In this document: piece by piece, positions 12,544 to 28,578 of the stretch
Numbering within the stretch: the stretch's first letter is position 1
Layout: every line of letters starts with the position of its first letter
DNA from: Candidatus Methanoperedens sp.
GTDB lineage: Archaea > Halobacteriota > Methanosarcinia > Methanosarcinales > Methanoperedenaceae
NCBI GenBank assembly: GCA_027460535.1
Contig: JAPZAR010000011.1
Location: forward strand, 150,001-182,000
DNA length: 32,000 nucleotides
Direction: 5' to 3'
The notes under the pieces: generated by a model
Database searches by the model: none
What the model saw: only the letters and a program-made list of their open reading frames with translations
Told to the model about the DNA's origin: nothing
Position numbers and translations under genes: made by a program

Positions 12544-14358
12544 TCAAACTGTTGATTCTTTTTGCACAGGAACTTTTTTCTCTGTCCCCCTTCCTTTCTT
12601 AATTTTCTCTCCTGTTTCCTCTTCTATAATATTTTCATCGATTGCTTTGGGGGCCTCTTTAACCGGCTTTTTCATTTCATTGCCTTTTCTTTTGGTTAAG
12701 ATTTTTGTTCCCTTTTCCATGTCTTCAACGGCAACTTCAGGTTCTTTTTTAACAAGCTTTCTCTTGCTCACTTTTTTCCGCGGTGTTCCATCCAACACCG
12801 TTATTTCATCTTCCAAACTTACCCCTTTTTCCTGGATTGCCGGTTTGAATTCTGAGCGTGTAACTGGTTTCTTTGAACCAGGGGTCATGGCAATTAGTGA
12901 CACTCCGGATTGCGGCTCAGGGGTTTTAGGCGCCTTTGATTCGGGGGTCTTGGCCATTAATGGCACTCCGGGTTGCGGCTCGGGGGTTTTAGGTGCCTTT
13001 GAATCAGGGGTCTTGGCAATTAATGACACTCCGGGTTGCGGCTCGGGGTTCTTAGGTGCCTTTGATTCGGAGCTCTTGGCAATTAATGACGCTCCGGATT
13101 GCGGCTTTGGGGTTTTAGGTGCCTTTGATTCGGGATTCTTGGCCATTAATGACACTCCGGATTGCGGCTTTGGGGTTTTAGGGGCCTTTGATTCGGAGCT
13201 CTTGGCAATTAATGATACTCCGGGTTGCACCTTTGGGGTTTTAGGGGCCTTTGATTCGGAGCTCTTGGCAATTAATGACACTCCGGGTTGCAGCTTTGGG
13301 GTTTTAGGTGCCTTTGATTCGGAGCTCTTGGCAATTAATGATACTCCGGATTGCGGCTTTGGGGTTTTAGGTGCCTTTGATTCAGGAGTCTTGGCCATTA
13401 ATGACACTCCGGGTTGCAGCTTTGGGGTTTTAGGTGCCTTTGATTCAGGAGTCTTGGCCATTAATGACACTCCGGGTTGCACCTTTGGGGCTTTAGGTGC
13501 CTTTGAATCAGGGGTCTTGGCAATTAATGACACTACGGGTTGCACCTTTGGGGTATTAGGTGCCTTTGATTCGGGGGTCTTGGCGATTACTGACACCTCA
13601 CGAACTACCGGTTGCGGCTCAGGGTTTTTAGGAGCCTTTGATTCGGGATTCTTGGCAACTAATGACCCTTCACGAACTCCGGGTTGCGGCTCTGCGGTTT
13701 TAACCGGGGCCTTTGGTCCAGGGTTTTTGGCAATTAATGACACTACGGGTTGTGGCTCTGCGGTTTTAGATGCCTTTGATTCGAGATTCTTGGCGATTAA
13801 TGACACTCCGGGTTGCGACTCTGGGGTTTTAGGTGCCTTTGATTCAGGGTTCTCGGCGATTAATGACACTCCGGGTTGCGGCTCTGGGGTTTTAACCAGG
13901 ACCTTTGATTCAGGGTTCTTGGTGATTAATGACCCTTCACGAACTACCGGTTGCAGCTCCGGGGTTTTAGGTGCCTTTAATTCGGGGTTCCTGGCGATTA
14001 ATGACCCTTCACGAACTCCGGGTTGCACCTCGGGGTTTTTAGGTGCCTTCAATTCGGGGTTCTCCACAATTCTTCCTTCCTCCCCTGTTTTCATCACAGA
14101 GGGTGTTGGTTTTGCGGAAGGGATTGTTTCATTTTTTTCCTGAGGAATGGCATCCTGTGTTGCCATTTGAAATCTCGCAGGCTTGAACTCATCTTTTGTT
14201 ATGTCCGCAATTCTGGAAACATCTAAAGCATGCTCTTTTTTCAATTGGTGATTGTTCCTTGATTTTCTAATTCTGATTAAGAGAAAAAGCCCAATTATGA
14301 TCAGAATTGCAATGCCTAACAAAATCAAGGGGTATCTTGAGAGTAAATCAATGGCCAT
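12544..14358 (-). CDS. N-terminally membrane-anchored Lys/Pro/Ser-rich tandem-repeat protein (predicted disordered), unknown function
   Basis: 604 aa. ATG at 14358 preceded by AGGAG. N-terminal TM helix PLILLGIAILIIIGLFLLI followed by RIRKSRNN. About 19 repeats with consensus TPESKAPKTPKxQPGVSLIAK, then a K/E-rich tail. The opposite-strand ORF lacks an SD and starts at TTG. Confidence 0.6.
   Translation of the reverse strand: MAIDLLSRYPLILLGIAILIIIGLFLLIRIRKSRNNHQLKKEHALDVSRIADITKDEFKPARFQMATQDAIPQEKNETIPSAKPTPSVMKTGEEGRIVENPELKAPKNPEVQPGVREGSLIARNPELKAPKTPELQPVVREGSLITKNPESKVLVKTPEPQPGVSLIAENPESKAPKTPESQPGVSLIAKNLESKASKTAEPQPVVSLIAKNPGPKAPVKTAEPQPGVREGSLVAKNPESKAPKNPEPQPVVREVSVIAKTPESKAPNTPKVQPVVSLIAKTPDSKAPKAPKVQPGVSLMAKTPESKAPKTPKLQPGVSLMAKTPESKAPKTPKPQSGVSLIAKSSESKAPKTPKLQPGVSLIAKSSESKAPKTPKVQPGVSLIAKSSESKAPKTPKPQSGVSLMAKNPESKAPKTPKPQSGASLIAKSSESKAPKNPEPQPGVSLIAKTPDSKAPKTPEPQPGVPLMAKTPESKAPKTPEPQSGVSLIAMTPGSKKPVTRSEFKPAIQEKGVSLEDEITVLDGTPRKKVSKRKLVKKEPEVAVEDMEKGTKILTKRKGNEMKKPVKEAPKAIDENIIEEETGEKIKKGRGTEKKVPVQKESTV
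12881..14065. repeat. Tandem direct repeat array, 63-bp unit (some 66-72-bp variants), about 19 copies, in-frame within the CDS
   Basis: Adjacent central units are near-identical: 13201-13263 versus 13264-13326 differ at 3 of 63 positions. Units near the 14-kb end are more diverged and carry 9-bp insertions (REG in the protein). Confidence 0.9.
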
Positions 14359-20772: not shown

Positions 20773-21216
20773 ATGCTATCAAAGAAGTGGATCCTCGTAT
20801 CGCTCGCAGCGCTCGTGTTATTTTCAGGTTATCTGGCTCAATCCAAGAATTTCCAGTCCGTTGATGACGGGAAGATGACGCTGCAGGAATTGAAATTCTA
20901 TACGAATCTCACCCCGGCACTTGAGGCAGCAAAAGCGCAGAGCAAACCTGTATTTTTATACGCAAGGTCTGAATCATGCGGCTGGTGCAAGAAATTCGAA
21001 GAAGAAACCTTCACGAACCAGAGCGCCATCAAGAAACTAAACGAAAACTTCATATTGGTTTCAATCGATGTGTACAAGCAAAAAAATGAAACCCGAAATT
21101 TTATGATACGAGGTACACCCACTGAGATATTTCTTGACTCATCTGGCAAGGAAATAAGAAGAATACCTGGATATGCAGATACGGAAACATTTCTCAACAC
21201 AATAAATGAATTATAA
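20773..21216 (+). CDS. Membrane-anchored/secreted thioredoxin-fold protein (CGWC active site)
   Basis: 147 aa. N-terminal hydrophobic anchor WILVSLAALVLFSGYL. CxxC motif in SESCGWCKKFEEE, with a cis-Pro-type RGTPT downstream. Confidence 0.7.
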   Translation: MLSKKWILVSLAALVLFSGYLAQSKNFQSVDDGKMTLQELKFYTNLTPALEAAKAQSKPVFLYARSESCGWCKKFEEETFTNQSAIKKLNENFILVSIDVYKQKNETRNFMIRGTPTEIFLDSSGKEIRRIPGYADTETFLNTINEL

Positions 21217-21238
21217 AAATAGAGAGGCCTGAAGAAGA

Positions 21239-22543
21239 ATGAAGCCTGAAAAGAAAGAAAAAAATGTAAAAGCAAAGAGAGAAAAAATTTCGAAAAAGAA
21301 AGGTAACAGTACGTTAATTATCGGCATCGTTGCGGTAATTGTCCTTGCCGGAATAGCGTATGCTGTTTTCTCCGCTGGACCAGCAACAAAAAAAACACAA
21401 GACACCGGGGTAAAACTTCCAAGTTTTGCTTATACGAACCCGATAACATTAAAAGCTTATAAATACGCAACCGAACATCCAGAAATACTTGAACAGATAC
21501 CATGCTACTGCGGCTGTGGATCTCACGGCAGTGAAGCTTCGGATTACAGGCCGCATCGTTTTCTGAGGGACTGCTATATTAATGATAATTGGCAATATGA
21601 CGAACACGCCTCATTCTGTGACGTCTGCGTAGGAGAAGCCACTAAAGTTCAGGAATATCTCGCCGAAGGCAAGACGCTCACGGAGGCAAGGGCACTGATA
21701 GACCAGGAGTACAGCAAAATAGGGGCAATGATGACAAATACACCCCCTGTAAGTGATAATTATATACCAATCCTGAAACCGAAACTTGCCGGAACGCTGG
21801 CAACACCAGCACCGACACCGACAATCGACTTATCCGCACTCTCCCTGCCTGATAACTTCAGATCGTTAAGTGACGGTTTGAAACTTATTCCACCCGGGAT
21901 TACATGGGCATATTTTGCGAATCTGAAACAGGGAATCGGAGTCGAGCAGAAATTTATGCATGATACGAATTTTTACGGCATACCGATTATAGGAATGCTG
22001 AATTCAGAATATCCCGACGGCTCATGGGTAGAACTGCATGATGTTGGCAAAGCAAACGCAAATGTTATATCAAATGCTGGAGCAGATGCTGACAATATCG
22101 TTTCTACACGACCATTTATATTTGATTCCAAAGATAAAACAAACAGTGTGCAGGCTCTCTTTAAAAATTCTGCAACTAATGCGAATGCATATGACTCATT
22201 TAAATCCATCCTGGAAAAAGTGGACGATGAAAATGCGGGATTTGCAAAGATAAATACCACAGCACCTCCATTTGCGGATGCAAGTTATATTGGAATAATA
22301 AAATCCGAAACCGGCATACTGGGAGAAGTAAAGGGAGAAATCGCGTTTAGAATCAAGGATAACAGCTCAGTTCCGCTGGCACAATATAACGAATTGAAAA
22401 GTTCAAGCCTATCTCGCGGGTTTAAGTCTTATGAAGTGAGCCAGGAAAATAATATATTAATTATAAAAACGACCTCTAACCTGAATAATTTTATTGCTGA
22501 AGCCACTCAGCAGTACGGAATTGATATTTCAGTCTTCGGTTAA
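21239..22543 (+). CDS. Membrane-anchored PCYCGC-motif protein with an uncharacterised ~250-aa C-terminal domain
   Basis: 434 aa. Lys-rich N-terminus and TM helix LIIGIVAVIVLAGIAYAVF. PCYCGC at nt 21500-21517, followed by H..S....H and CDVC. The rest has no motif I recognise. Confidence 0.6.
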   Translation: MKPEKKEKNVKAKREKISKKKGNSTLIIGIVAVIVLAGIAYAVFSAGPATKKTQDTGVKLPSFAYTNPITLKAYKYATEHPEILEQIPCYCGCGSHGSEASDYRPHRFLRDCYINDNWQYDEHASFCDVCVGEATKVQEYLAEGKTLTEARALIDQEYSKIGAMMTNTPPVSDNYIPILKPKLAGTLATPAPTPTIDLSALSLPDNFRSLSDGLKLIPPGITWAYFANLKQGIGVEQKFMHDTNFYGIPIIGMLNSEYPDGSWVELHDVGKANANVISNAGADADNIVSTRPFIFDSKDKTNSVQALFKNSATNANAYDSFKSILEKVDDENAGFAKINTTAPPFADASYIGIIKSETGILGEVKGEIAFRIKDNSSVPLAQYNELKSSSLSRGFKSYEVSQENNILIIKTTSNLNNFIAEATQQYGIDISVFG

Positions 22544-23259
22544 TGCCCGCACCTTCCATATTCCTGGTTTTCATCGCAGGCATGGCAACAGTGATAACGC
22601 CGTGCGTTCTCCCCATCCTGCCTGCGGTGTTGTCTGGCTCCATAGGGAGCAGACTGCGCCCCTTAGCCATAGTCATGGGCATGACAATAACCTTTACTCT
22701 GATGGGCGTCCTCATTTCAGCGGTTGCGTCTTTTTCTTTTTTCGCTGATTACCTGCGATGGCTCTCGATCTTTTTTATTATCGGCATGGGCGCTGTCTTG
22801 TTTGACAATGATATAAATCAGGCATACGTGAATGCTTCAAGCTCGATTTTGAATTTCGCAAGGCAGCGTTTCTCTTATATGGGAAACATTGAATCATTCG
22901 CGCCCAGGGAAGGGCTGCTCGGAGGTCTTTTCCTGGGTGTATCCCTCGGCATCCTCTGGATACCATGCGTGGGCCCTATTCTCGGGGCAGTATTTGCTTT
23001 CGTCGCCGCAGGTTCTGCCAATCTTTTTCAAGGGAGTATTCTTCTCCTGGTATATTCTCTCGGGGTTGGAATTCCCATGCTTGGCATTGCATATTCGGGA
23101 AAAAGAGTTTCGGGCCGTGTCACCTGGTTGGCGAAAAGAGGTCATTTTTTTAAGAAGCTCTCAGGCTTGATCCTGATAATCGTAGGATTAATGATGCTCT
23201 TTGAGATCGATAGATATCTCAAGAAAATACTGTTGCCCTATTTCCCTGTTTATTTCTGA
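22543..23259 (+). CDS. ccdA: CcdA/DsbD-family transmembrane thiol-disulfide electron transporter (paralog 1)
   Basis: 238 aa, polytopic. Conserved Cys in TPCVLPILP and WIPCVGPILGA. The start ATG overlaps the upstream stop (TAATG at 22541-22545). Confidence 0.8.
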   Translation: MPAPSIFLVFIAGMATVITPCVLPILPAVLSGSIGSRLRPLAIVMGMTITFTLMGVLISAVASFSFFADYLRWLSIFFIIGMGAVLFDNDINQAYVNASSSILNFARQRFSYMGNIESFAPREGLLGGLFLGVSLGILWIPCVGPILGAVFAFVAAGSANLFQGSILLLVYSLGVGIPMLGIAYSGKRVSGRVTWLAKRGHFFKKLSGLILIIVGLMMLFEIDRYLKKILLPYFPVYF

Positions 23260-23266
23260 GGTCGCA

Positions 23267-24649
23267 ATGAATAAGAACGATGTTGAAAACGACGAAAAAT
23301 TCGATCTGCTGGATATCTATTTTTTCAGGAGCCTTGTCAAGAACAGGTTTTTCAGGCCAGTGATCAATCTGCTTTTCTTCATCTTCCTTTTAGTCATCAT
23401 ATACTTCGGGCTTTCAAGCAATCCAGACCTGCGTTTCCACGGCGGGATCCCTTTCTCTACGACAATGATATGGGACCTCTGGCATCCACTGCTCGTCTTC
23501 ACCCTCATAATTTTCGGGAGGCTCTGGTGTTTTGCATGCCCCATAGGCGCAGTCGGGGACTGGACGCAGTCGCTCTTCAGCTTCAAGAAGAAATATCCTG
23601 AAAAGTACCGGAACCTCTGGATCGCTGTCATTCTCTTCCTGTTCATTTTCGCTGCCGAGAGGCATCTTTTCATGTTTACGCGGAATCCCCCGAATACTGC
23701 ATATCTCCTTTTATTCTTCACCGGGCTGGCAGTGGTAATGGCGGTTGTGTATGAAAAGCGGTCATTTTGCAGGTACATCTGTCCAATCGGGCTTGTGCTG
23801 GGTGTTTTCTCCATGCTCTCGGCAATTGAACTTCGCTGCAAGTCAAAGAAAACCTGCGCAGACCACAACATTAAAGAGTGCGTCATCGGCAACGAAGCCG
23901 GGAAAGCATGCCCAGTCGGCGAGTTCCCGCAAACGATGGAGCGGAACAACTATTGTATAATGTGCATGGAATGCGTGAAATCTTGTTCCAAAGGGAATAT
24001 CCGACTAAGCCCAAGGCTTCCCGGTGCGGATATCGTAAAAGCAAAAAAGATACATCTGGATGAAGCATATCTTGTCCACGGGATAATCATTATGTTCCTT
24101 TTTGTCATGGGGATGGAACGCTTCCAGTTCAGGAATACGATCATCAATTTCGTGAAATCCACGCTTCCTGTTAATTCGGTGACCTTCCTTGACCTTTACT
24201 GGAGGAACATGTGGGCGATAATAATTTTTAGCCTGATAACGCTTGGTGCCGCAGGTCTCCTCTACCTTTCCACCCGGGCATCCCTTCCCGGAAAAAACAC
24301 AAAGCAAAAGTTCATGGAATTTTCCTATGCATTCATACCCCTGGCCCTTTCTGTCTACCTTGCAGAAAACACCTTCAGGCTGCTGAAAGGATTATTCTTT
24401 CTTTTGGAGAATGCGGGTAAGGTCTTTGGTGGGGTATGGCAATTCGATGTTAATTTTGACACCATTAATCAGGCGCAGATCCTCATTTTGCTGGCAGGGT
24501 TCATTTTTTCCGTATGGGCAGGGTATCTTATCAGCAAAAGGCAATCGATTGATCATAAGGAGTTCAGGCAAAGCATGACTGCAATAAGTGTTACCGCAAT
24601 TATTTATCTCTTCATAGGGGTGATAATTCTAACGCTCCCGATAGTATAA
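23267..24649 (+). CDS. Polytopic membrane polyferredoxin, NapH/CcoG(FixG)/NosR-like
   Basis: The ATG at 23267 (GAGG upstream) follows the ccdA stop by 7 nt. Membrane-embedded WCFACPIG and FCRYICPIG motifs. Ferredoxin-type CIMCMECVKSC plus CADHNIKEC...ACP. Followed by about 5 more TM helices. Confidence 0.6.
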   Translation: MNKNDVENDEKFDLLDIYFFRSLVKNRFFRPVINLLFFIFLLVIIYFGLSSNPDLRFHGGIPFSTTMIWDLWHPLLVFTLIIFGRLWCFACPIGAVGDWTQSLFSFKKKYPEKYRNLWIAVILFLFIFAAERHLFMFTRNPPNTAYLLLFFTGLAVVMAVVYEKRSFCRYICPIGLVLGVFSMLSAIELRCKSKKTCADHNIKECVIGNEAGKACPVGEFPQTMERNNYCIMCMECVKSCSKGNIRLSPRLPGADIVKAKKIHLDEAYLVHGIIIMFLFVMGMERFQFRNTIINFVKSTLPVNSVTFLDLYWRNMWAIIIFSLITLGAAGLLYLSTRASLPGKNTKQKFMEFSYAFIPLALSVYLAENTFRLLKGLFFLLENAGKVFGGVWQFDVNFDTINQAQILILLAGFIFSVWAGYLISKRQSIDHKEFRQSMTAISVTAIIYLFIGVIILTLPIV

Positions 24650-24755
24650 TTATTTTACACATCTCGTAAAGTATAATGTATAAACATGTAAAAAAAAAGA
24701 AAAATAATAGCGCAAAACCATATAGCTTATATAGGAAACAAATCAGGATTGAGTT

Positions 24756-25235
24756 ATGAAAACCAAAAAATTGCAGTCAATACTTGTTTTGATACTGATC
24801 ATAGCCTTCGCATACGGCTCTTACACTATCTCCCTCAAGGATTTCAGGCTGAGCGATAAGAACAACAGTTACCTGGGAGGGCTCACCTGGTCAAGATCGC
24901 TGGATAAATCGATAGAACTGGCCGGGCAGGAAAACAAGCCTGTAGCGATATATTTCTGGGCCATATGGTGCCAGTACTGCGCAAAGTTCCAGAGCGACAC
25001 GCTGGGGAGCCCGCAAGTTAAGAAAATACTTGAAGATGATTTTGTTCTTGTAGCGATGGATCTCGATGTTGACAGGGACGTTGCGAACAAATATCGCGTC
25101 CAGGCTCCGCCTGCGGTAATTTTCCTTGACAATAAGGGAAACGAAATGAGGGATTTCAGGATAAATGGCGCCGTGGATGCCAGTACGTTCCTGCCCGTAG
25201 TTACTGAGGTAAGAAAACAGGTCAGGGGAAAATAG
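24756..25235 (+). CDS. Membrane-anchored thioredoxin-fold protein (WCQYC active site), CcmG/ResA-like role possible
   Basis: 159 aa. Signal-anchor ILVLILIIAFAYG. CxxC in FWAIWCQYCAKF. The gene ends 2 nt before the ccmF ATG. Confidence 0.7.
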   Translation: MKTKKLQSILVLILIIAFAYGSYTISLKDFRLSDKNNSYLGGLTWSRSLDKSIELAGQENKPVAIYFWAIWCQYCAKFQSDTLGSPQVKKILEDDFVLVAMDLDVDRDVANKYRVQAPPAVIFLDNKGNEMRDFRINGAVDASTFLPVVTEVRKQVRGK

Positions 25236-25237
25236 AT

Positions 25238-27568
25238 ATGACGACTTTAGGCAATGAATTACTTTATGCAAGTCTCGCTGTAAGCGTGATTGCGCTAATT
25301 GGACTTTTATTGAAAGAATTTAAGAACAGGGATATTTTATCAAGAGCAATAACACCTCTGATTCTCCTGGGGACAGGCCTTCTCACTTTGGCCTATCTGC
25401 TTCTCACTTATTATTTCGTTGCGAGCGACTTTACCTATGAATACGTTTGGCAGTACTCAAGCCGCGATCTGCCGCTTATCTATAAAATAAGCGGGGCATG
25501 GGCAGGTCAGCCGGGCACTTACCTATTATGGGCATGGGTGATCTTCCTTTCCGCAGCATGGCTCGCCTACACCACCAGACATGCAAAACCCCTGGCTATA
25601 AGAACGCAGATAATAACCCTGATTATAGGCCTATATCTCATAATTCTCACTCTTGTCCAGACCCCGTTCAAATCCATATACGAGGGCAGACCCGATCTTA
25701 TTGGTTTCGTGCCTCCGGACGGCAGCGGCCTGAACGCCCTGTTAGTAAACTTCTGGATGATAGTCCATCCTCCCCTGATGTTCATAGGCTATGCCGCCAT
25801 GACAATACCCTTTGCCGCCGCCATCGTGTACCTGCTTACAAAAGACGATGGGTGGGAAGAGTTGAGCAGGCAGTGGGCAAGGTTCACCTGGTTATTCCTG
25901 GGCATGGGCATTGCTGTGGGCGGTGTCTGGGCATATCTTGTACTGGGATGGGGCGGTTTCTGGGCCTGGGACCCAGTGGAGACAGCCTCGTTCATACCCT
26001 GGCTCACGCTTACAGGTTTCCTTCATGCGGCAGCTCTGCACAGGAAGAACAAGACGACATTCTCAATAGCAGCCCCAATGCTGGCTGCAGTTTCTTTTAT
26101 TTTAGTACTGTATGCAGCCATCGTTGTCCGAAGCGGGCTTTTTAATTCTGTCCATGCCTTCGGGGACACTTCTACAGGTTCGCTTCTTCTCATATCTATA
26201 CTGATAATCTCAGTCGTATCCATCGTCCTTGGCATGAGGCGCTACCTTGCCGAGTCTGAAAAGGCTGAAGAAGAGTGGGGATTATGGAGCAAGAGGAATA
26301 TCTTCTATGTATCCCTGCTATTATTCGTTATCCTGGCTTTCATTTCCTTCTGGGGCATCACTTACCCGGCATTCATCCAGATCACACAAAATCTGAAGGT
26401 AAATGTCGCCTCCGATACCAAGAACTTCTTCAATTTATGGAGCTACCCATTCACTATAATACTGCTCCTTGGCCTGGGATTCTGCCTGAACTACAAGGAA
26501 TCGCAAAAGGATAAGCAGAAACAAACGCTTTTCATCGTGGCTGCAATCACCGTTATAGCCATGTTCCCACGGACAGAGCACTTCTATGTTCTCGATCATA
26601 CAAGTCCCTTTTTTGTCAGGGAACCAACTCTCTATAAACTGATAGGCTCAATTTCGGTATTGTCTATTTTCCCGCCCATGGTATACGCACTTATATCCAC
26701 ATTCCAGCGCCTGGCAGATTTCCTTCGCCTGGGCAGCCTTCGGCCGAAGATCAAAGGCATAGGTCTGGCTGCAGTTCACTTTGGCGTGGTGTTCATTCTC
26801 TTTGGCGCTATCATCAGTTCCAGTTTCACGCAAACCATAGACAGGATAAACATCCCTCTCGCGGCAAAAGGAGAGCAATTTGATGTCGGGAACGGTTATG
26901 GCATTAAGGTCCTGGATTTATCAACCAGCAGCCTGGTTGAAACCGGTGTTCCCGCCGGCGCTACCAGGATATCGGATATAATCAGCAATCCTGAAAATTA
27001 CGCCAATAATGCAGTGCAGGTCAGCGGTCAAATCACAAGTGTGCAGAATGCACAATCCAAAACTCCACCCATCACCTACACAACGTATTTCGAGCTCAAC
27101 GACGGTACGGGAAATATCTGGGTGGCAACCCAGAGCAATGTACCTGTAGCCATCCCCGAGGGAATTCAGGTGACAGTAACTGGAGCCCTGATGGCTGGTT
27201 TTACGAGTCCTTCAACCAACACCACATATCCCCTGATCATTTTCTCAAGCCCGGATGAAATCAGTGAAACATCAGCTTCCGGTCAGTATAAAGTCCAGAG
27301 CCTCAGGCTTGAAGTCTACCAAAATAACAGGAAGATCGGAAGCGGAGTCGCAGAGTATCTTGAAGGAAAAGGAAGCGGGACTTTCCCGATGGTGGACAGC
27401 AGCATAACAGGAACTGATGTCTATGTGATATTCCAGGGTGTGAGCAGCGGTATTGTGCCATTGAGTCTAAAAATAATACCTGCGGTAAACTTCGCCTGGG
27501 TTGGCATCCTGCTGTTCGCTGCGGGAATAATCCTGATAATGGCAATGAAAACAAAAAAGGGCGAATGA
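25238..27568 (+). CDS. ccmF: Cytochrome c maturation heme lyase CcmF (System I) with an extra OB-fold-like insertion in the extracytoplasmic C-terminal domain
   Basis: 776 aa. Trp-rich WWD motif WGGFWAWDPVETASFIPWL. Many TM helices. Canonical CcmF C-terminus (DVYVIFQGV...LKIIPAVNFAWVGILLFAAG). Confidence 0.8.
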   Translation: MTTLGNELLYASLAVSVIALIGLLLKEFKNRDILSRAITPLILLGTGLLTLAYLLLTYYFVASDFTYEYVWQYSSRDLPLIYKISGAWAGQPGTYLLWAWVIFLSAAWLAYTTRHAKPLAIRTQIITLIIGLYLIILTLVQTPFKSIYEGRPDLIGFVPPDGSGLNALLVNFWMIVHPPLMFIGYAAMTIPFAAAIVYLLTKDDGWEELSRQWARFTWLFLGMGIAVGGVWAYLVLGWGGFWAWDPVETASFIPWLTLTGFLHAAALHRKNKTTFSIAAPMLAAVSFILVLYAAIVVRSGLFNSVHAFGDTSTGSLLLISILIISVVSIVLGMRRYLAESEKAEEEWGLWSKRNIFYVSLLLFVILAFISFWGITYPAFIQITQNLKVNVASDTKNFFNLWSYPFTIILLLGLGFCLNYKESQKDKQKQTLFIVAAITVIAMFPRTEHFYVLDHTSPFFVREPTLYKLIGSISVLSIFPPMVYALISTFQRLADFLRLGSLRPKIKGIGLAAVHFGVVFILFGAIISSSFTQTIDRINIPLAAKGEQFDVGNGYGIKVLDLSTSSLVETGVPAGATRISDIISNPENYANNAVQVSGQITSVQNAQSKTPPITYTTYFELNDGTGNIWVATQSNVPVAIPEGIQVTVTGALMAGFTSPSTNTTYPLIIFSSPDEISETSASGQYKVQSLRLEVYQNNRKIGSGVAEYLEGKGSGTFPMVDSSITGTDVYVIFQGVSSGIVPLSLKIIPAVNFAWVGILLFAAGIILIMAMKTKKGE

Positions 27569-27846
27569 ACATTACTGGATAGTTCTCGATGTCAGGATAT
27601 TGACCCAGCCTTTTGGAGAAAAGAAGGTGGCTTCCGGGAGATGGGAAAGTAATCCATGACATGCTTAGCCACAATCAAGAGCCGTCTGACAGCTGCTAGA
27701 GTGATGTCAGGAAATTCACATTCGATCTTGATAATACTCGCCATACAGGAAGCCATTCTCAATGTGATTGAAGGGCCTCACTTGCCTAGGAGCATCCGAG
27801 GATAAATGCAGAGAACTCCAGGCAAAAACCTGCAAAGTGACTGGCC

Positions 27847-28578
27847 TTATATACCATAAAAAGTGGTCGGGAAATAAGGAGAAAGTGCTCTGATTATCAG
27901 CTTGTCTATGTTGAACAGCAGCATAATGCCAATAACGATGAGCACAAGTCCGGAGAGTTTCTTGAGAATAGGCCCGCGCTTAACGAACCACTGGTATCTG
28001 TTCGTGACTTTCTTGCCATAATAGGCTATGGACAGCATGGGAAGGCTCATGCCGACAGAGTAAACGAACAGCATCCATGCGCCGTATGACATGTTGCCTA
28101 CCGAGGCCACATATGCAAGCACTGCTCCCAGTATGGGCCCAACGCACGGGATCCACAGGATGCCAAGGGACATGCCCAGGAAAAATCCACCTGCCAGGCC
28201 TCCCTGAGGGATGCCTGATGAATACCCGCTCATCGAGCCGAAATTCTGCCTCAATCCCTGGGTTATCGAGCTTGAAATCTTTATGAACTCCATGTTTATG
28301 TCGTCATCAAAAAGCACAGCACCCATACCTATGATAAATAGAATGGCCAGGCTGCGCAAGGAGTCGGTGTATGCTGTGAACGTGGCGCCGAAAGCTGATA
28401 CCAGCACTCCCATTGCAGTGAAGGTCAATGCCAGTCCAGAAACGATAGCAAAGGGGCGCAGCCTGTGCCCTCCTGAGCCAGAGAATATCACAGGCACTAG
28501 CGGAAGGCAGCACGGCTTCAGTATTGTAACCACGCCTGCTATGAAAACCAGAATAATGGAGGGTGCTGTAGGGTTCAT
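27847..28578 (-). CDS. ccdA: CcdA/DsbD-family transmembrane thiol-disulfide electron transporter (paralog 2)
   Basis: 243 aa, collinear with paralog 1 (KPCCLPLVP, WIPCVGPILGA, LFIIGMGAVLFDDDIN). Convergent with ccmF. Confidence 0.8.
   Translation of the reverse strand: MNPTAPSIILVFIAGVVTILKPCCLPLVPVIFSGSGGHRLRPFAIVSGLALTFTAMGVLVSAFGATFTAYTDSLRSLAILFIIGMGAVLFDDDINMEFIKISSSITQGLRQNFGSMSGYSSGIPQGGLAGGFFLGMSLGILWIPCVGPILGAVLAYVASVGNMSYGAWMLFVYSVGMSLPMLSIAYYGKKVTNRYQWFVKRGPILKKLSGLVLIVIGIMLLFNIDKLIIRALSPYFPTTFYGI

Follow-up and report, generated by a model that had tools for sequence, protein, structure and literature searches.

Methane oxidation by Methanoperedens and other anaerobic methanotrophic (ANME) archaea requires many, very large multiheme cytochromes for extracellular electron transfer. 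For the archaeal variant of System I cytochrome c maturation, Allen (2006) is said to be a source. Archaeal System I attaches heme without the full bacterial set: it consists of CcmABCEF with optional CcmG and CcdA, its genes are scattered over the genome, and the substitutes for CcmH, CcmI and CcmD and the reductant of the lyase b-heme are open questions (PMC9084895). In ANME-2d, CcmH and several CcmF paralogs have been reported (PMC9012536). Three other findings bear on the genes described here: NapH-like proteins serve as modular conduits for electrons across membranes (PMC8238504), CcoG acts as a cupric reductase (PMC7558416), and the Scs system couples copper and thiol redox (PMC10907172). 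Copper also targets and poisons cytochrome c assembly (PMC4600104). Here we analyze an island of seven genes in a stretch of 32,000 nucleotides (nt) of Candidatus Methanoperedens (ANME-2d), termed the window, to which coordinates refer unless a related locus is named. Its PCYCGC protein and polyferredoxin match proteins of an NCBI Methanoperedens metagenome-assembled genome with 100% identity, and ENA and Logan contigs contain the same DNA. The island combines the heme lyase CcmF with two thioredoxin-fold proteins (Trx1 and Trx2), two CcdA-type transporters, a membrane polyferredoxin (pFd) and a protein of the PCYCGC family.

With moderate confidence, we propose that the island is part of a Methanoperedenaceae regulon that matures exported c-type cytochromes, in which module A (Trx1, the PCYCGC protein, CcdA1 and pFd) would act in accessory reductant delivery, possibly linked to copper. 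In module B (Trx2, CcmF and the convergent CcdA2) we recognise the ordinary System I components of archaea for heme ligation and thiol reduction. The original prediction, made from the sequence alone, read the seven genes as a redox unit on the outer face of the membrane that offers either a streamlined or an alternative route of maturation and reductant delivery. A conserved unit and an accessory route are retained in our proposal; the streamlined pathway is not.

Gene order and its conservation

All seven open reading frames (ORFs) lie where the original prediction had them, and Pfam and NCBIfam searches assign them to the families it had named. The junctions it described are also exact on reading the sequence: the PCYCGC stop codon overlaps the CcdA1 start codon (TAATG, 22541-22545), 7 nt separate CcdA1 from pFd (before 23267), 106 nt separate pFd from Trx2 (24650-24755) and 2 nt separate Trx2 from CcmF. 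CcdA2 is convergent with CcmF, as had been claimed, and lies beyond a 278-nt spacer. By hydropathy, Trx1, Trx2 and the PCYCGC protein each have a single N-terminal anchor, with the body outside.

Related loci (L-numbers) were collected by scanning one genome per GTDB species with a pFd alignment and then mapping the window proteins onto them. The order Trx1-PCYCGC-(CcdA1)-pFd-Trx2-CcmF is found in 36 loci from 33 Methanoperedenaceae assemblies; 23 are complete, six are cut by a contig end but consistent, and seven lack CcdA1. Because the flanking genes differ among these loci, conservation of gene order, which the original prediction had proposed as a check, is seen against a variable background. 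The best-conserved island gene is pFd, with 73-95% identity in all but four of the 36 loci, and it adjoins Trx2-CcmF in every Methanoperedenaceae locus whose contig extends far enough. Trx2 and CcmF are 1-3 nt apart in all but two of the loci that hold both genes. The pFd-Trx2 spacer measures approximately 47-145 nt, and 311 nt in the apparently error-ridden L032. CcdA2 is convergent downstream of the cluster in 10 loci. Three metagenome-assembled genomes (MAGs) contain two diverged copies of the cluster on different contigs (L005 and L020 in JBAZOV01, L009 and L034 in JAPMTR01, L016 and L019 in JBAQLI01); in two of the three, one copy has CcdA1 and the other lacks it. These copies could be real duplications or mixed-strain bins.

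The most extended arrangement is found in UBA10536, a deep-branching member of the Methanoperedenaceae (L040, 800-13450), where ccmE-Trx-PCYCGC-CcdA-pFd-Trx-ccmF-ccmE'-ccmF'-ccmH, three genes for Ig-like proteins and an AsnC/TRASH regulator gene are collinear. PCYCGC and pFd are thus placed between ccmE and ccmF. The two proteins had been singled out in the original prediction as non-standard partners of System I; their conservation and this placement agree with that view, and their location inside ccm operons appears to be new. The L040 PCYCGC gene is broken by masked N bases.

Within the 32-kb window we found no ccmABCDE or ccmH, as the original prediction had noted, and no ORF with CxxCH or cytochrome c structural gene. 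Rfam and tRNA scans of the window gave no matches, and the cluster is flanked by housekeeping genes unrelated to it. Little follows from the lack of ccmABCDE and ccmH in the window, given that ccm genes in archaea are scattered (PMC9084895). Relatives encode elsewhere CcmC (Cytochrom_C_asm), CcmE with the archaeal CPSKY motif, a second CcmF and a genuine CcmH (PF03918, E 2e-14). Since these genes are present at other loci, a streamlined maturation pathway is unsupported.

An operator-like palindrome and a candidate regulator

Three copies, and no more, of the palindrome TTTAC-N7-GTAAA are present in the window, compared with 0.02 expected, and none of 100 shuffles reaches three. One copy stands in front of each of three transcription units (Table 1), and no further site with up to two mismatches was found in the window. 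The 106-nt gap between pFd and Trx2, described earlier as promoter-like, holds one of the palindromes together with a proximal TATA-like element that is conserved in approximately 30 species (alignment of 32 related loci and the window). The presence of this element and of a ribosome-binding site in the spacer makes two transcription units plausible. A bacterial promoter and terminator scan was also tried and discarded; its counts are at shuffle level, and the method is unsuited to an archaeon.

The related loci, 1.19 Mb in total, contain 101 palindrome sites, including 33 before Trx1 (median distance to the ATG, 14 nt), 20 before Trx2, 15 before CcdA2 and six before ccmE. At least eight sites lie at the start of a gene for a regulator with an AsnC helix-turn-helix (HTH) and a TRASH domain. 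In the promoters of Trx1, CcdA2 and the regulator, the site lies directly 3' of the TATA-like element, a layout that would suit a repressor.

The same palindrome is found in front of a second operon in relatives, ccmE-ccmF'-ccmH-Ig-like protein-cupredoxin-like-DsbD-like-short PCYCGC (L053, 4711-10877 on the minus strand; L035, 94-6311; also L052 and L076). Its ccmF' product is 35% identical to the window CcmF, the Ig-like protein is large and exported, the cupredoxin-like protein matches Cupredoxin_1, and the PCYCGC protein has 160 amino acids (aa). Here too, PCYCGC and a DsbD-type protein are linked with a heme lyase. The original prediction had named, as a finding that would count against it, a complete ccm operon elsewhere in the genome with its own CcmF, CcdA and Trx, provided that the copies described here are not co-expressed with cytochromes. 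We do not regard the second operon as a refutation: the palindrome is present there too, together with PCYCGC and DsbD-like genes of the operon's own, and the operon thus appears to belong to the regulon. Four small genes lie between the two ccm clusters of L035 (METP1 genome, 6785-8302), where Trx1 is missing; they encode a Met/His-rich exported protein of 118 aa, a Cys/His-rich protein of 61 aa, an exported rhodanese-like protein of 149 aa and a zinc-ribbon protein of 75 aa. The last of these genes has the palindrome in front.

The regulator gene is intact in L013 (10284-10886), 3 nt after ccmF, closes the super-operon of L040 and is truncated in L011 (14350-14598). In the window, the corresponding spacer contains a weak 12-aa trace of it (27706-27741, E 0.011). 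The faint trace suggests gene loss, and an AsnC/TRASH regulator gene has probably decayed at the spacer. Statistics and position support a shared operator, and the regulator gene, which lies in the island in L013 and L040, bears the site itself; the window is without the gene. Based on these in-silico observations, modules A and B, CcdA2 and the second ccm operon appear to be co-regulated, and the AsnC-type protein with its metal-binding TRASH domain is the likely candidate for the regulator acting on the palindrome.

Table 1. Coordinates of the island genes and associated elements in the window.
Feature	Position	Strand	Description
Palindrome 1, TTTACATCCATCGTAAA	20751-20767		Follows a CTTATAT TATA-like element directly; the Trx1 ATG is 6 nt downstream
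Trx1	20773-21216	+	Membrane-anchored extracytoplasmic thioredoxin fold, CGWC; Thioredoxin_2/7; DsbD-gamma/DsbH-type relation
PCYCGC protein, 434 aa	21239-22543	+	PF13798; N-in anchor, Cys/His-rich helical domain
CcdA1	22543-23259	+	DsbD_TM; thiol-disulfide transporter family
pFd, NapH/CcoG(YccM)-like membrane polyferredoxin, 460 aa	23267-24649	+	Two Fer4_5; weak NapH/MauN match
Palindrome 2, TTTACACATCTCGTAAA	24654-24670		Right after the pFd stop, upstream of Trx2
Proximal TATA-like element, conserved, GCTTATAT	24724-24733	+	The Trx2 ATG lies about 25 nt downstream; an AGGA ribosome-binding site follows the element
Trx2	24756-25235	+	Anchored extracytoplasmic thioredoxin fold, WCQYC
CcmF heme lyase, 776 aa	25238-27568	+	Cytochrom_C_asm
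Spacer, 278 nt, between convergent CcmF and CcdA2	27569-27846		Position of the AsnC/TRASH regulator gene in relatives
CcdA2	27847-28578	-	DsbD_TM; convergent with CcmF
Palindrome 3, TTTACATACAGTGTAAA	28633-28649		55 nt upstream of the CcdA2 ATG, TATA-like elements on either side

Elsewhere in the window, a 63-nt unit is repeated in tandem 17 times at positions 12881-14005 (83% matches). The repeats sit within a minus-strand ORF (12544-14358) for a 604-aa protein with an N-terminal anchor and 21-aa repeats of the PESKAPKTP type, which has no Pfam family; the local composition is unusual, with a GC content of 0.51 and an AT skew of -0.34.

The PCYCGC protein, the polyferredoxin and the module B proteins

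The PCYCGC protein matches PF13798 with 64.4 bits (cutoff 25), over aa 58-169 of 434 only, and NCBIfam NF041379, the 'CYCXC family (seleno)protein', with 64 bits, below the equivalog cutoff of 90. The family match and the Cys motifs place it in PF13798/NF041379. Its motifs read PCYCGC...H...HRFLRDC...H...CDVC, and the invariant residues are P88-C-Y-C-G-C93, H96, H106, C112, H123, C127 and C130. Methanoperedenaceae have a long form of approximately 400-440 aa and a short form of approximately 165-190 aa. The C-terminal domain of the long form (about 235-260 aa; aa 200-434) was seen only in Methanoperedens and has no Pfam, PDB or fold match. Invariant residues of the long form include D197, L198, S199, P204, N206, F207, E265, H267, D268, R291 and P292, and five related loci with the short form lack the domain. 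We found no functional account of PCYCGC in the literature.

Outside archaea, a PCYCGC gene lies directly upstream of a pFd homolog in nine bacterial loci, from Methylomirabilota (NC10), Rokubacteria and Chloroflexi. Seven of the nine carry an in-frame TGA at the first cysteine of the CxxC (C127/C130 in the window), giving UxxC (L041, L042, L049, L054, L061, L062 and L078, with the gene about 1 kb upstream of the pFd match). The context is HAAT-U-DICMDEAL, the frame is conserved for 33-42 aa past the TGA, and a hairpin resembling a selenocysteine insertion sequence (SECIS) starts approximately 17 nt downstream. This pattern agrees with the NCBIfam name, and the TGA-bearing homologs are probably selenoproteins. 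Selenocysteine/cysteine (Sec/Cys) pairs usually mark redox-active sites; the substitution therefore marks the CxxC as one. The neighbours of the bacterial pairs are cytochromes c and b in NC10-type loci, and CuA-like cupredoxin/cytochrome c fusions and a CopB-like ATPase in Chloroflexi, where an Anaerolineae locus reads CopB-like ATPase-PCYCGC-CuA-like cupredoxin-pFd. Among six Firmicute plasmids inspected, four have PCYCGC beside heavy-metal P-type ATPases. A Bacillus nitratireducens plasmid operon reads ArsR-ATPase-SCO-DsbA-DsbB-PCYCGC, and on an Exiguobacterium plasmid PCYCGC lies in a copper island together with an ATPase, a multicopper oxidase and a four-helix protein that binds copper. 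A literature search on copper enzymes in Methanoperedens found nothing useful.

The polyferredoxin contains CFACP and CRYICP motifs, two 4Fe-4S motifs and a C-terminal extra region of several predicted transmembrane (TM) helices; C88, C91, C168, C172, C197, C205, C215, C230, C233, C236 and C240 are invariant. Its core aligns with E. coli NapH (hhalign probability 98.1%, E 9e-14) and with YccM of the CcoG type (98.5%, E 3e-15). It scores 29.9 bits against TIGR02163 (NapH/MauN, cutoff 213) and the window has no nap genes, so it is not assigned to NapH/MauN. The two Fer4_5 Cys motifs and two [4Fe-4S] motifs of CcoG/FixG/RdxA are present, but no match to Fer4_18, the FixG_C Ig-like domain or TIGR02745 was found in pFd, nor cco genes in the window, and it is not assigned to CcoG. 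The families named in the original prediction hold; pFd is NapH/CcoG-like and falls under the cutoffs of both families. The pFd family is broad (1889 representatives at E <= 0.001). No FMN-binding (flavin mononucleotide) or PCYCGC domain was found in the N-terminal extensions of 10 bacterial pFd homologs, so that these gave no Rosetta-stone fusion.

All three pFd paralogs adjoin CcdA, ccmC or ccmF genes, and the arrangement CcdA2-ccmC-regulator-F1-pFd' is seen in relatives. A paralog 33% identical to pFd (L044, L046, L048, L052, L058, L072, L077) always follows an AsnC/TRASH regulator and a secreted repeat protein of about 470 aa, which has no Pfam family. Near it are ccmC, a CcdA2 ortholog and a Cu(I)-type CopA with three HMA domains and a CPC motif. 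A third paralog, 28% identical, is divergent from CcdA2, with palindromes in between.

CcmF matches PF01578 (Cytochrom_C_asm) with 109 bits (cutoff 29.9), the solved Thermus CcmF structure 6ZMQ over aa 4-453 (E 1e-44) and E. coli CcmF with 32% identity (E 2e-47). Its score against NCBIfam TIGR00353, 233 bits, is under the strict cutoff of 569, which makes it a divergent member of the CcmF/NrfE family. W238, W242, W244 and D245 of the WWD domain, and H177, H263, H306 and H514, do not vary among 18 homologs. This is the pattern of the family, in which two periplasmic histidines flank the WWD domain and two transmembrane histidines ligate heme b. Of the four, the first three have counterparts in alignments with 6ZMQ and E. 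coli CcmF; H514 is assigned from position alone. With the family match, the WWD domain and the four histidines, the protein is placed among CcmF/NrfE heme lyases and predicted to attach heme. Its periplasmic C-terminal region, at approximately 215 residues, is about twice the bacterial size and has no specific match in the Thermus CcmF structure. In an AlphaFold2 (AF2) model, aa 530-751 (window 26825-27490) form an oligonucleotide/oligosaccharide-binding (OB) fold, with a predicted local distance difference test (pLDDT) score of 75. We considered a fused CcmE and rejected it: the Pfam CcmE match is weak and unspecific (E 0.008), and the OB-fold model best matches RPA-type domains, with CcmE at rank 19.

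Trx1 and Trx2 are 30% identical. Trx2 scores 17 bits against DsbE (TIGR00385, cutoff 123) and 30 bits against ResA (cutoff 170), and shares 27% identity with E. coli CcmG across 91 aa. Both proteins fall outside CcmG/DsbE/ResA and are nearer to the DsbD-gamma/Thioredoxin_7 type; anchored, with a CxxC and encoded beside ccmF, they may nevertheless act like CcmG. CcdA1 and CcdA2 match PF02683 (DsbD_TM, cutoff 27.1) with 39.7 and 67.3 bits, and both hold the TPC/KPCC...IPCVGP motifs, which places them in the CcdA/DsbD core family. The two were described earlier as collinear, inverted paralogs with shared identical blocks, and this is borne out (57% identity, longest identical block 16 aa). As a recombination-prone inverted repeat the pair was rejected: the best inverted DNA match is 100 nt at 73%, which indicates plain paralogy. 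CcdA2 orthologs in relatives adjoin ccmF or ccmC.

Proposed function of the island and comparison with known systems

From the observed gene identities, motifs, synteny, shared palindrome, Sec/Cys substitution and gene contexts, we infer a direction of electron flow, a substrate for PCYCGC, a metal and a regulator. CcdA2 would draw reducing equivalents from thiols in the cytoplasm and hand them through the membrane to the anchored Trx2, which would hold the CxxCH cysteines of arriving apocytochromes reduced, and CcmF would attach the heme by means of its WWD domain and four conserved histidines. Module A would provide a second, accessory route of reductant to the outer face. In this route, pFd would be loaded with electrons from the cytoplasmic side by way of two [4Fe-4S] clusters and a pair of Cys motifs at the membrane edge; its presumed partner is the anchored extracytoplasmic PCYCGC protein, whose CxxC (elsewhere UxxC) would be redox-active. 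Trx1 and CcdA1 may form a parallel dithiol route that reduces the many cysteines of PCYCGC. Reduced PCYCGC might shield or ready cofactor-ligating thiols, and might bind or reduce a thiophilic metal, most likely copper. The three units would be switched jointly through TTTAC-N7-GTAAA, the likely regulator being the AsnC/TRASH protein, which may sense a metal. The NapH conduits, the CcoG reductase, the poisoning by copper and the analogy to Scs lead us to propose module A as thiol protection or preparation linked to copper. A more far-reaching version is tentative, and we regard it as doubtful: PCYCGC and pFd would be an unrecognised two-component transmembrane Cys/Sec reductase of archaea, Methylomirabilota/Rokubacteria and Chloroflexi, recruited in Methanoperedenaceae together with its own Trx/CcdA pair as an essential System I accessory for very large multiheme cytochromes. 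Its task would be to guard CxxCH thiols against copper, or reduce them, or else to be the source of the lyase reductant, with AsnC/TRASH governing all parts through the operator.

Could module A instead serve copper or soft-metal homeostasis only, its location and regulation being shared with ccm because both serve exported redox proteins? In such a system pFd would be a CcoG-like cupric reductase, and PCYCGC would act outside the cytoplasm as a chaperone for copper or sequester it, with Trx1 and CcdA1 keeping it reduced; the unit would serve cuproprotein assembly or detoxification. The plasmid contexts described above, with their ATPases and their SCO, multicopper oxidase and four-helix partners, point in this direction, as does the Anaerolineae locus. 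So do the slightly better profile fit of pFd to YccM than to NapH, the paralogous pFd near CopA and a TRASH regulator, the Met/His-rich small exported proteins of L035, the cupredoxin-like gene adjoining the short PCYCGC and the described function of CcoG (PMC7558416). However, the L040 island lies between ccmE and ccmF, and the operator is common to ccm operons and absent at CopA. In addition, pFd lacks the Fer4_18, FixG_C and TIGR02745 matches, Sec at the CxxC points to catalysis more than to chaperoning, and no cuproenzyme gene was found within the window. We therefore consider a purely copper-related role rather unlikely. The copper alternative in the original prediction is independently favoured by the PCYCGC contexts in Firmicute plasmids and Chloroflexi.

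A second possibility places pFd at the heme step, where it would reduce the CcmF b-heme, and thereby the CcmE heme, or act as an Fe-S reductase of CcdA in place of thioredoxin, with PCYCGC as a functional substitute for CcmH. The conservation of pFd beside Trx2-CcmF, the association of its three paralogs with CcdA, ccmC or ccmF genes and the 7-nt gap to CcdA1 are consistent with this idea, which would also address two of the open questions, the b-heme reductant and the absence of CcmH in archaea (PMC9084895). Against it, PCYCGC, examined as a CcmH analog by homology, aligns to E. coli CcmH with an hhalign probability of 1.1% and is not a family member, a real CcmH is present in Methanoperedens, and the bacterial pair homologs are unlinked to ccm or CcdA genes. 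We know of no precedent for Fe-S-driven CcdA reduction. M. acetivorans also matures its cytochromes without such a protein (PMC9084895), and overall we find a role at the heme step improbable. That the seven genes are independent housekeeping redox genes brought together by coincidence is barely credible. The unrelated housekeeping flanks, and the variable presence of CcdA1 and position of CcdA2 among relatives, would fit a coincidence. The order is nevertheless kept in 36 loci with variable flanks, junctions are translationally coupled, the palindrome is specific to three promoters (0.02 expected), PCYCGC-pFd adjacency recurs across phyla, and protein identities of 36-90% argue against a synteny artefact of near-identical genomes. 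Module A is not a chance neighbour of module B, because of this synteny, the shared palindrome, the PCYCGC-pFd pairing and the metal-island contexts of PCYCGC.

Several observations weigh against maturation of exported cytochromes with module A as an accessory, the reading we prefer. Every functional link is drawn by association. For M. acetivorans, CcmABCEF are enough by themselves, and under laboratory conditions it can do without ccmG and ccdA (PMC9084895), so the accessory parts may be conditional or unrelated to heme attachment. CcdA1, missing in seven of the 36 loci, is not essential to module A. The pFd sequence falls short of both the NapH and the CcoG family cutoffs and matches solved structures only in generic 4Fe-4S motifs, with no relative among them; the side of the membrane on which its Fe-S domain would lie is predicted from the positive-inside rule alone. 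For PCYCGC, sequence and profile searches against solved structures returned no relative, and Foldseek with its model (pLDDT 72) returned nothing under E 0.001, so the fold yields no functional clue. The bacterial PCYCGC-pFd pairs are beside cytochrome c/b or cupredoxin genes and not beside ccm genes. Finally, CopA was considered as a member of the palindrome regulon and rejected: the CopA genes near the paralogous cluster are without the palindrome, and the copper link therefore stops short of the operator.

For archaeal cytochrome c maturation, the island offers conserved and apparently co-regulated candidates: pFd, the Cys/Sec protein PCYCGC and a TRASH-domain regulator with a defined operator. 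It also gives the widespread, uncharacterised PCYCGC family a first functional context and suggests that copper stress and archaeal cytochrome c maturation are linked mechanistically.

Compared with archaeal System I (PMC9084895, PMC9012536), the island shares a CcmF with WWD domain and four histidines, an anchored thioredoxin beside the lyase, CcdA-type transporters, scattered ccm loci and, in relatives, the CxxxY motif of CcmE. It differs in having an unsplit CcmF with an enlarged periplasmic OB-fold region, two Trx/CcdA sets, pFd and PCYCGC within the operon, CcmH and a second CcmF elsewhere, and an operator-like palindrome common to the units. We found no description of these departures in the literature on that system (PMC9084895, PMC9012536). 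Like the NapH-type systems NapGH, NosR and PceC (PMC8238504), pFd has two Fer4_5 Cys motifs, two [4Fe-4S] motifs, homology to the NapH core and a dedicated extracytoplasmic redox partner encoded next to it. Here, however, the partner is the Cys/Sec-rich PCYCGC and not an FMN-binding domain or NapG, a C-terminal TM region is added, no nap, nos or pce genes are nearby, and the score is 30 versus 213 bits.

The network of CcoG/YccM with Sco, PCuAC and TlpA-CcdA (PMC7558416) resembles module A in core architecture, with YccM as the best profile match for pFd, in the use of thioredoxin and CcdA to reduce what would be a Cys-rich extracytoplasmic metalloprotein, and in the copper contexts of family members. 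Unlike that network, module A lacks FixG_C/Fer4_18 and cco genes, and its PCYCGC is unrelated to Sco or PCuAC. Scs, in turn, consists of the DsbD-like ScsB, the thioredoxin-like ScsC and ScsD, and ScsA, and ties copper stress to thiol protection (PMC10907172). Like Scs, the island would represent an accessory envelope thiol-reducing system beside a canonical one, with a DsbD-family transporter, thioredoxin folds and a small extra protein. In the island, CcdA takes the place of ScsB and PCYCGC that of ScsA, an Fe-S polyferredoxin is added, and the system is archaeal and lies inside ccm operons.

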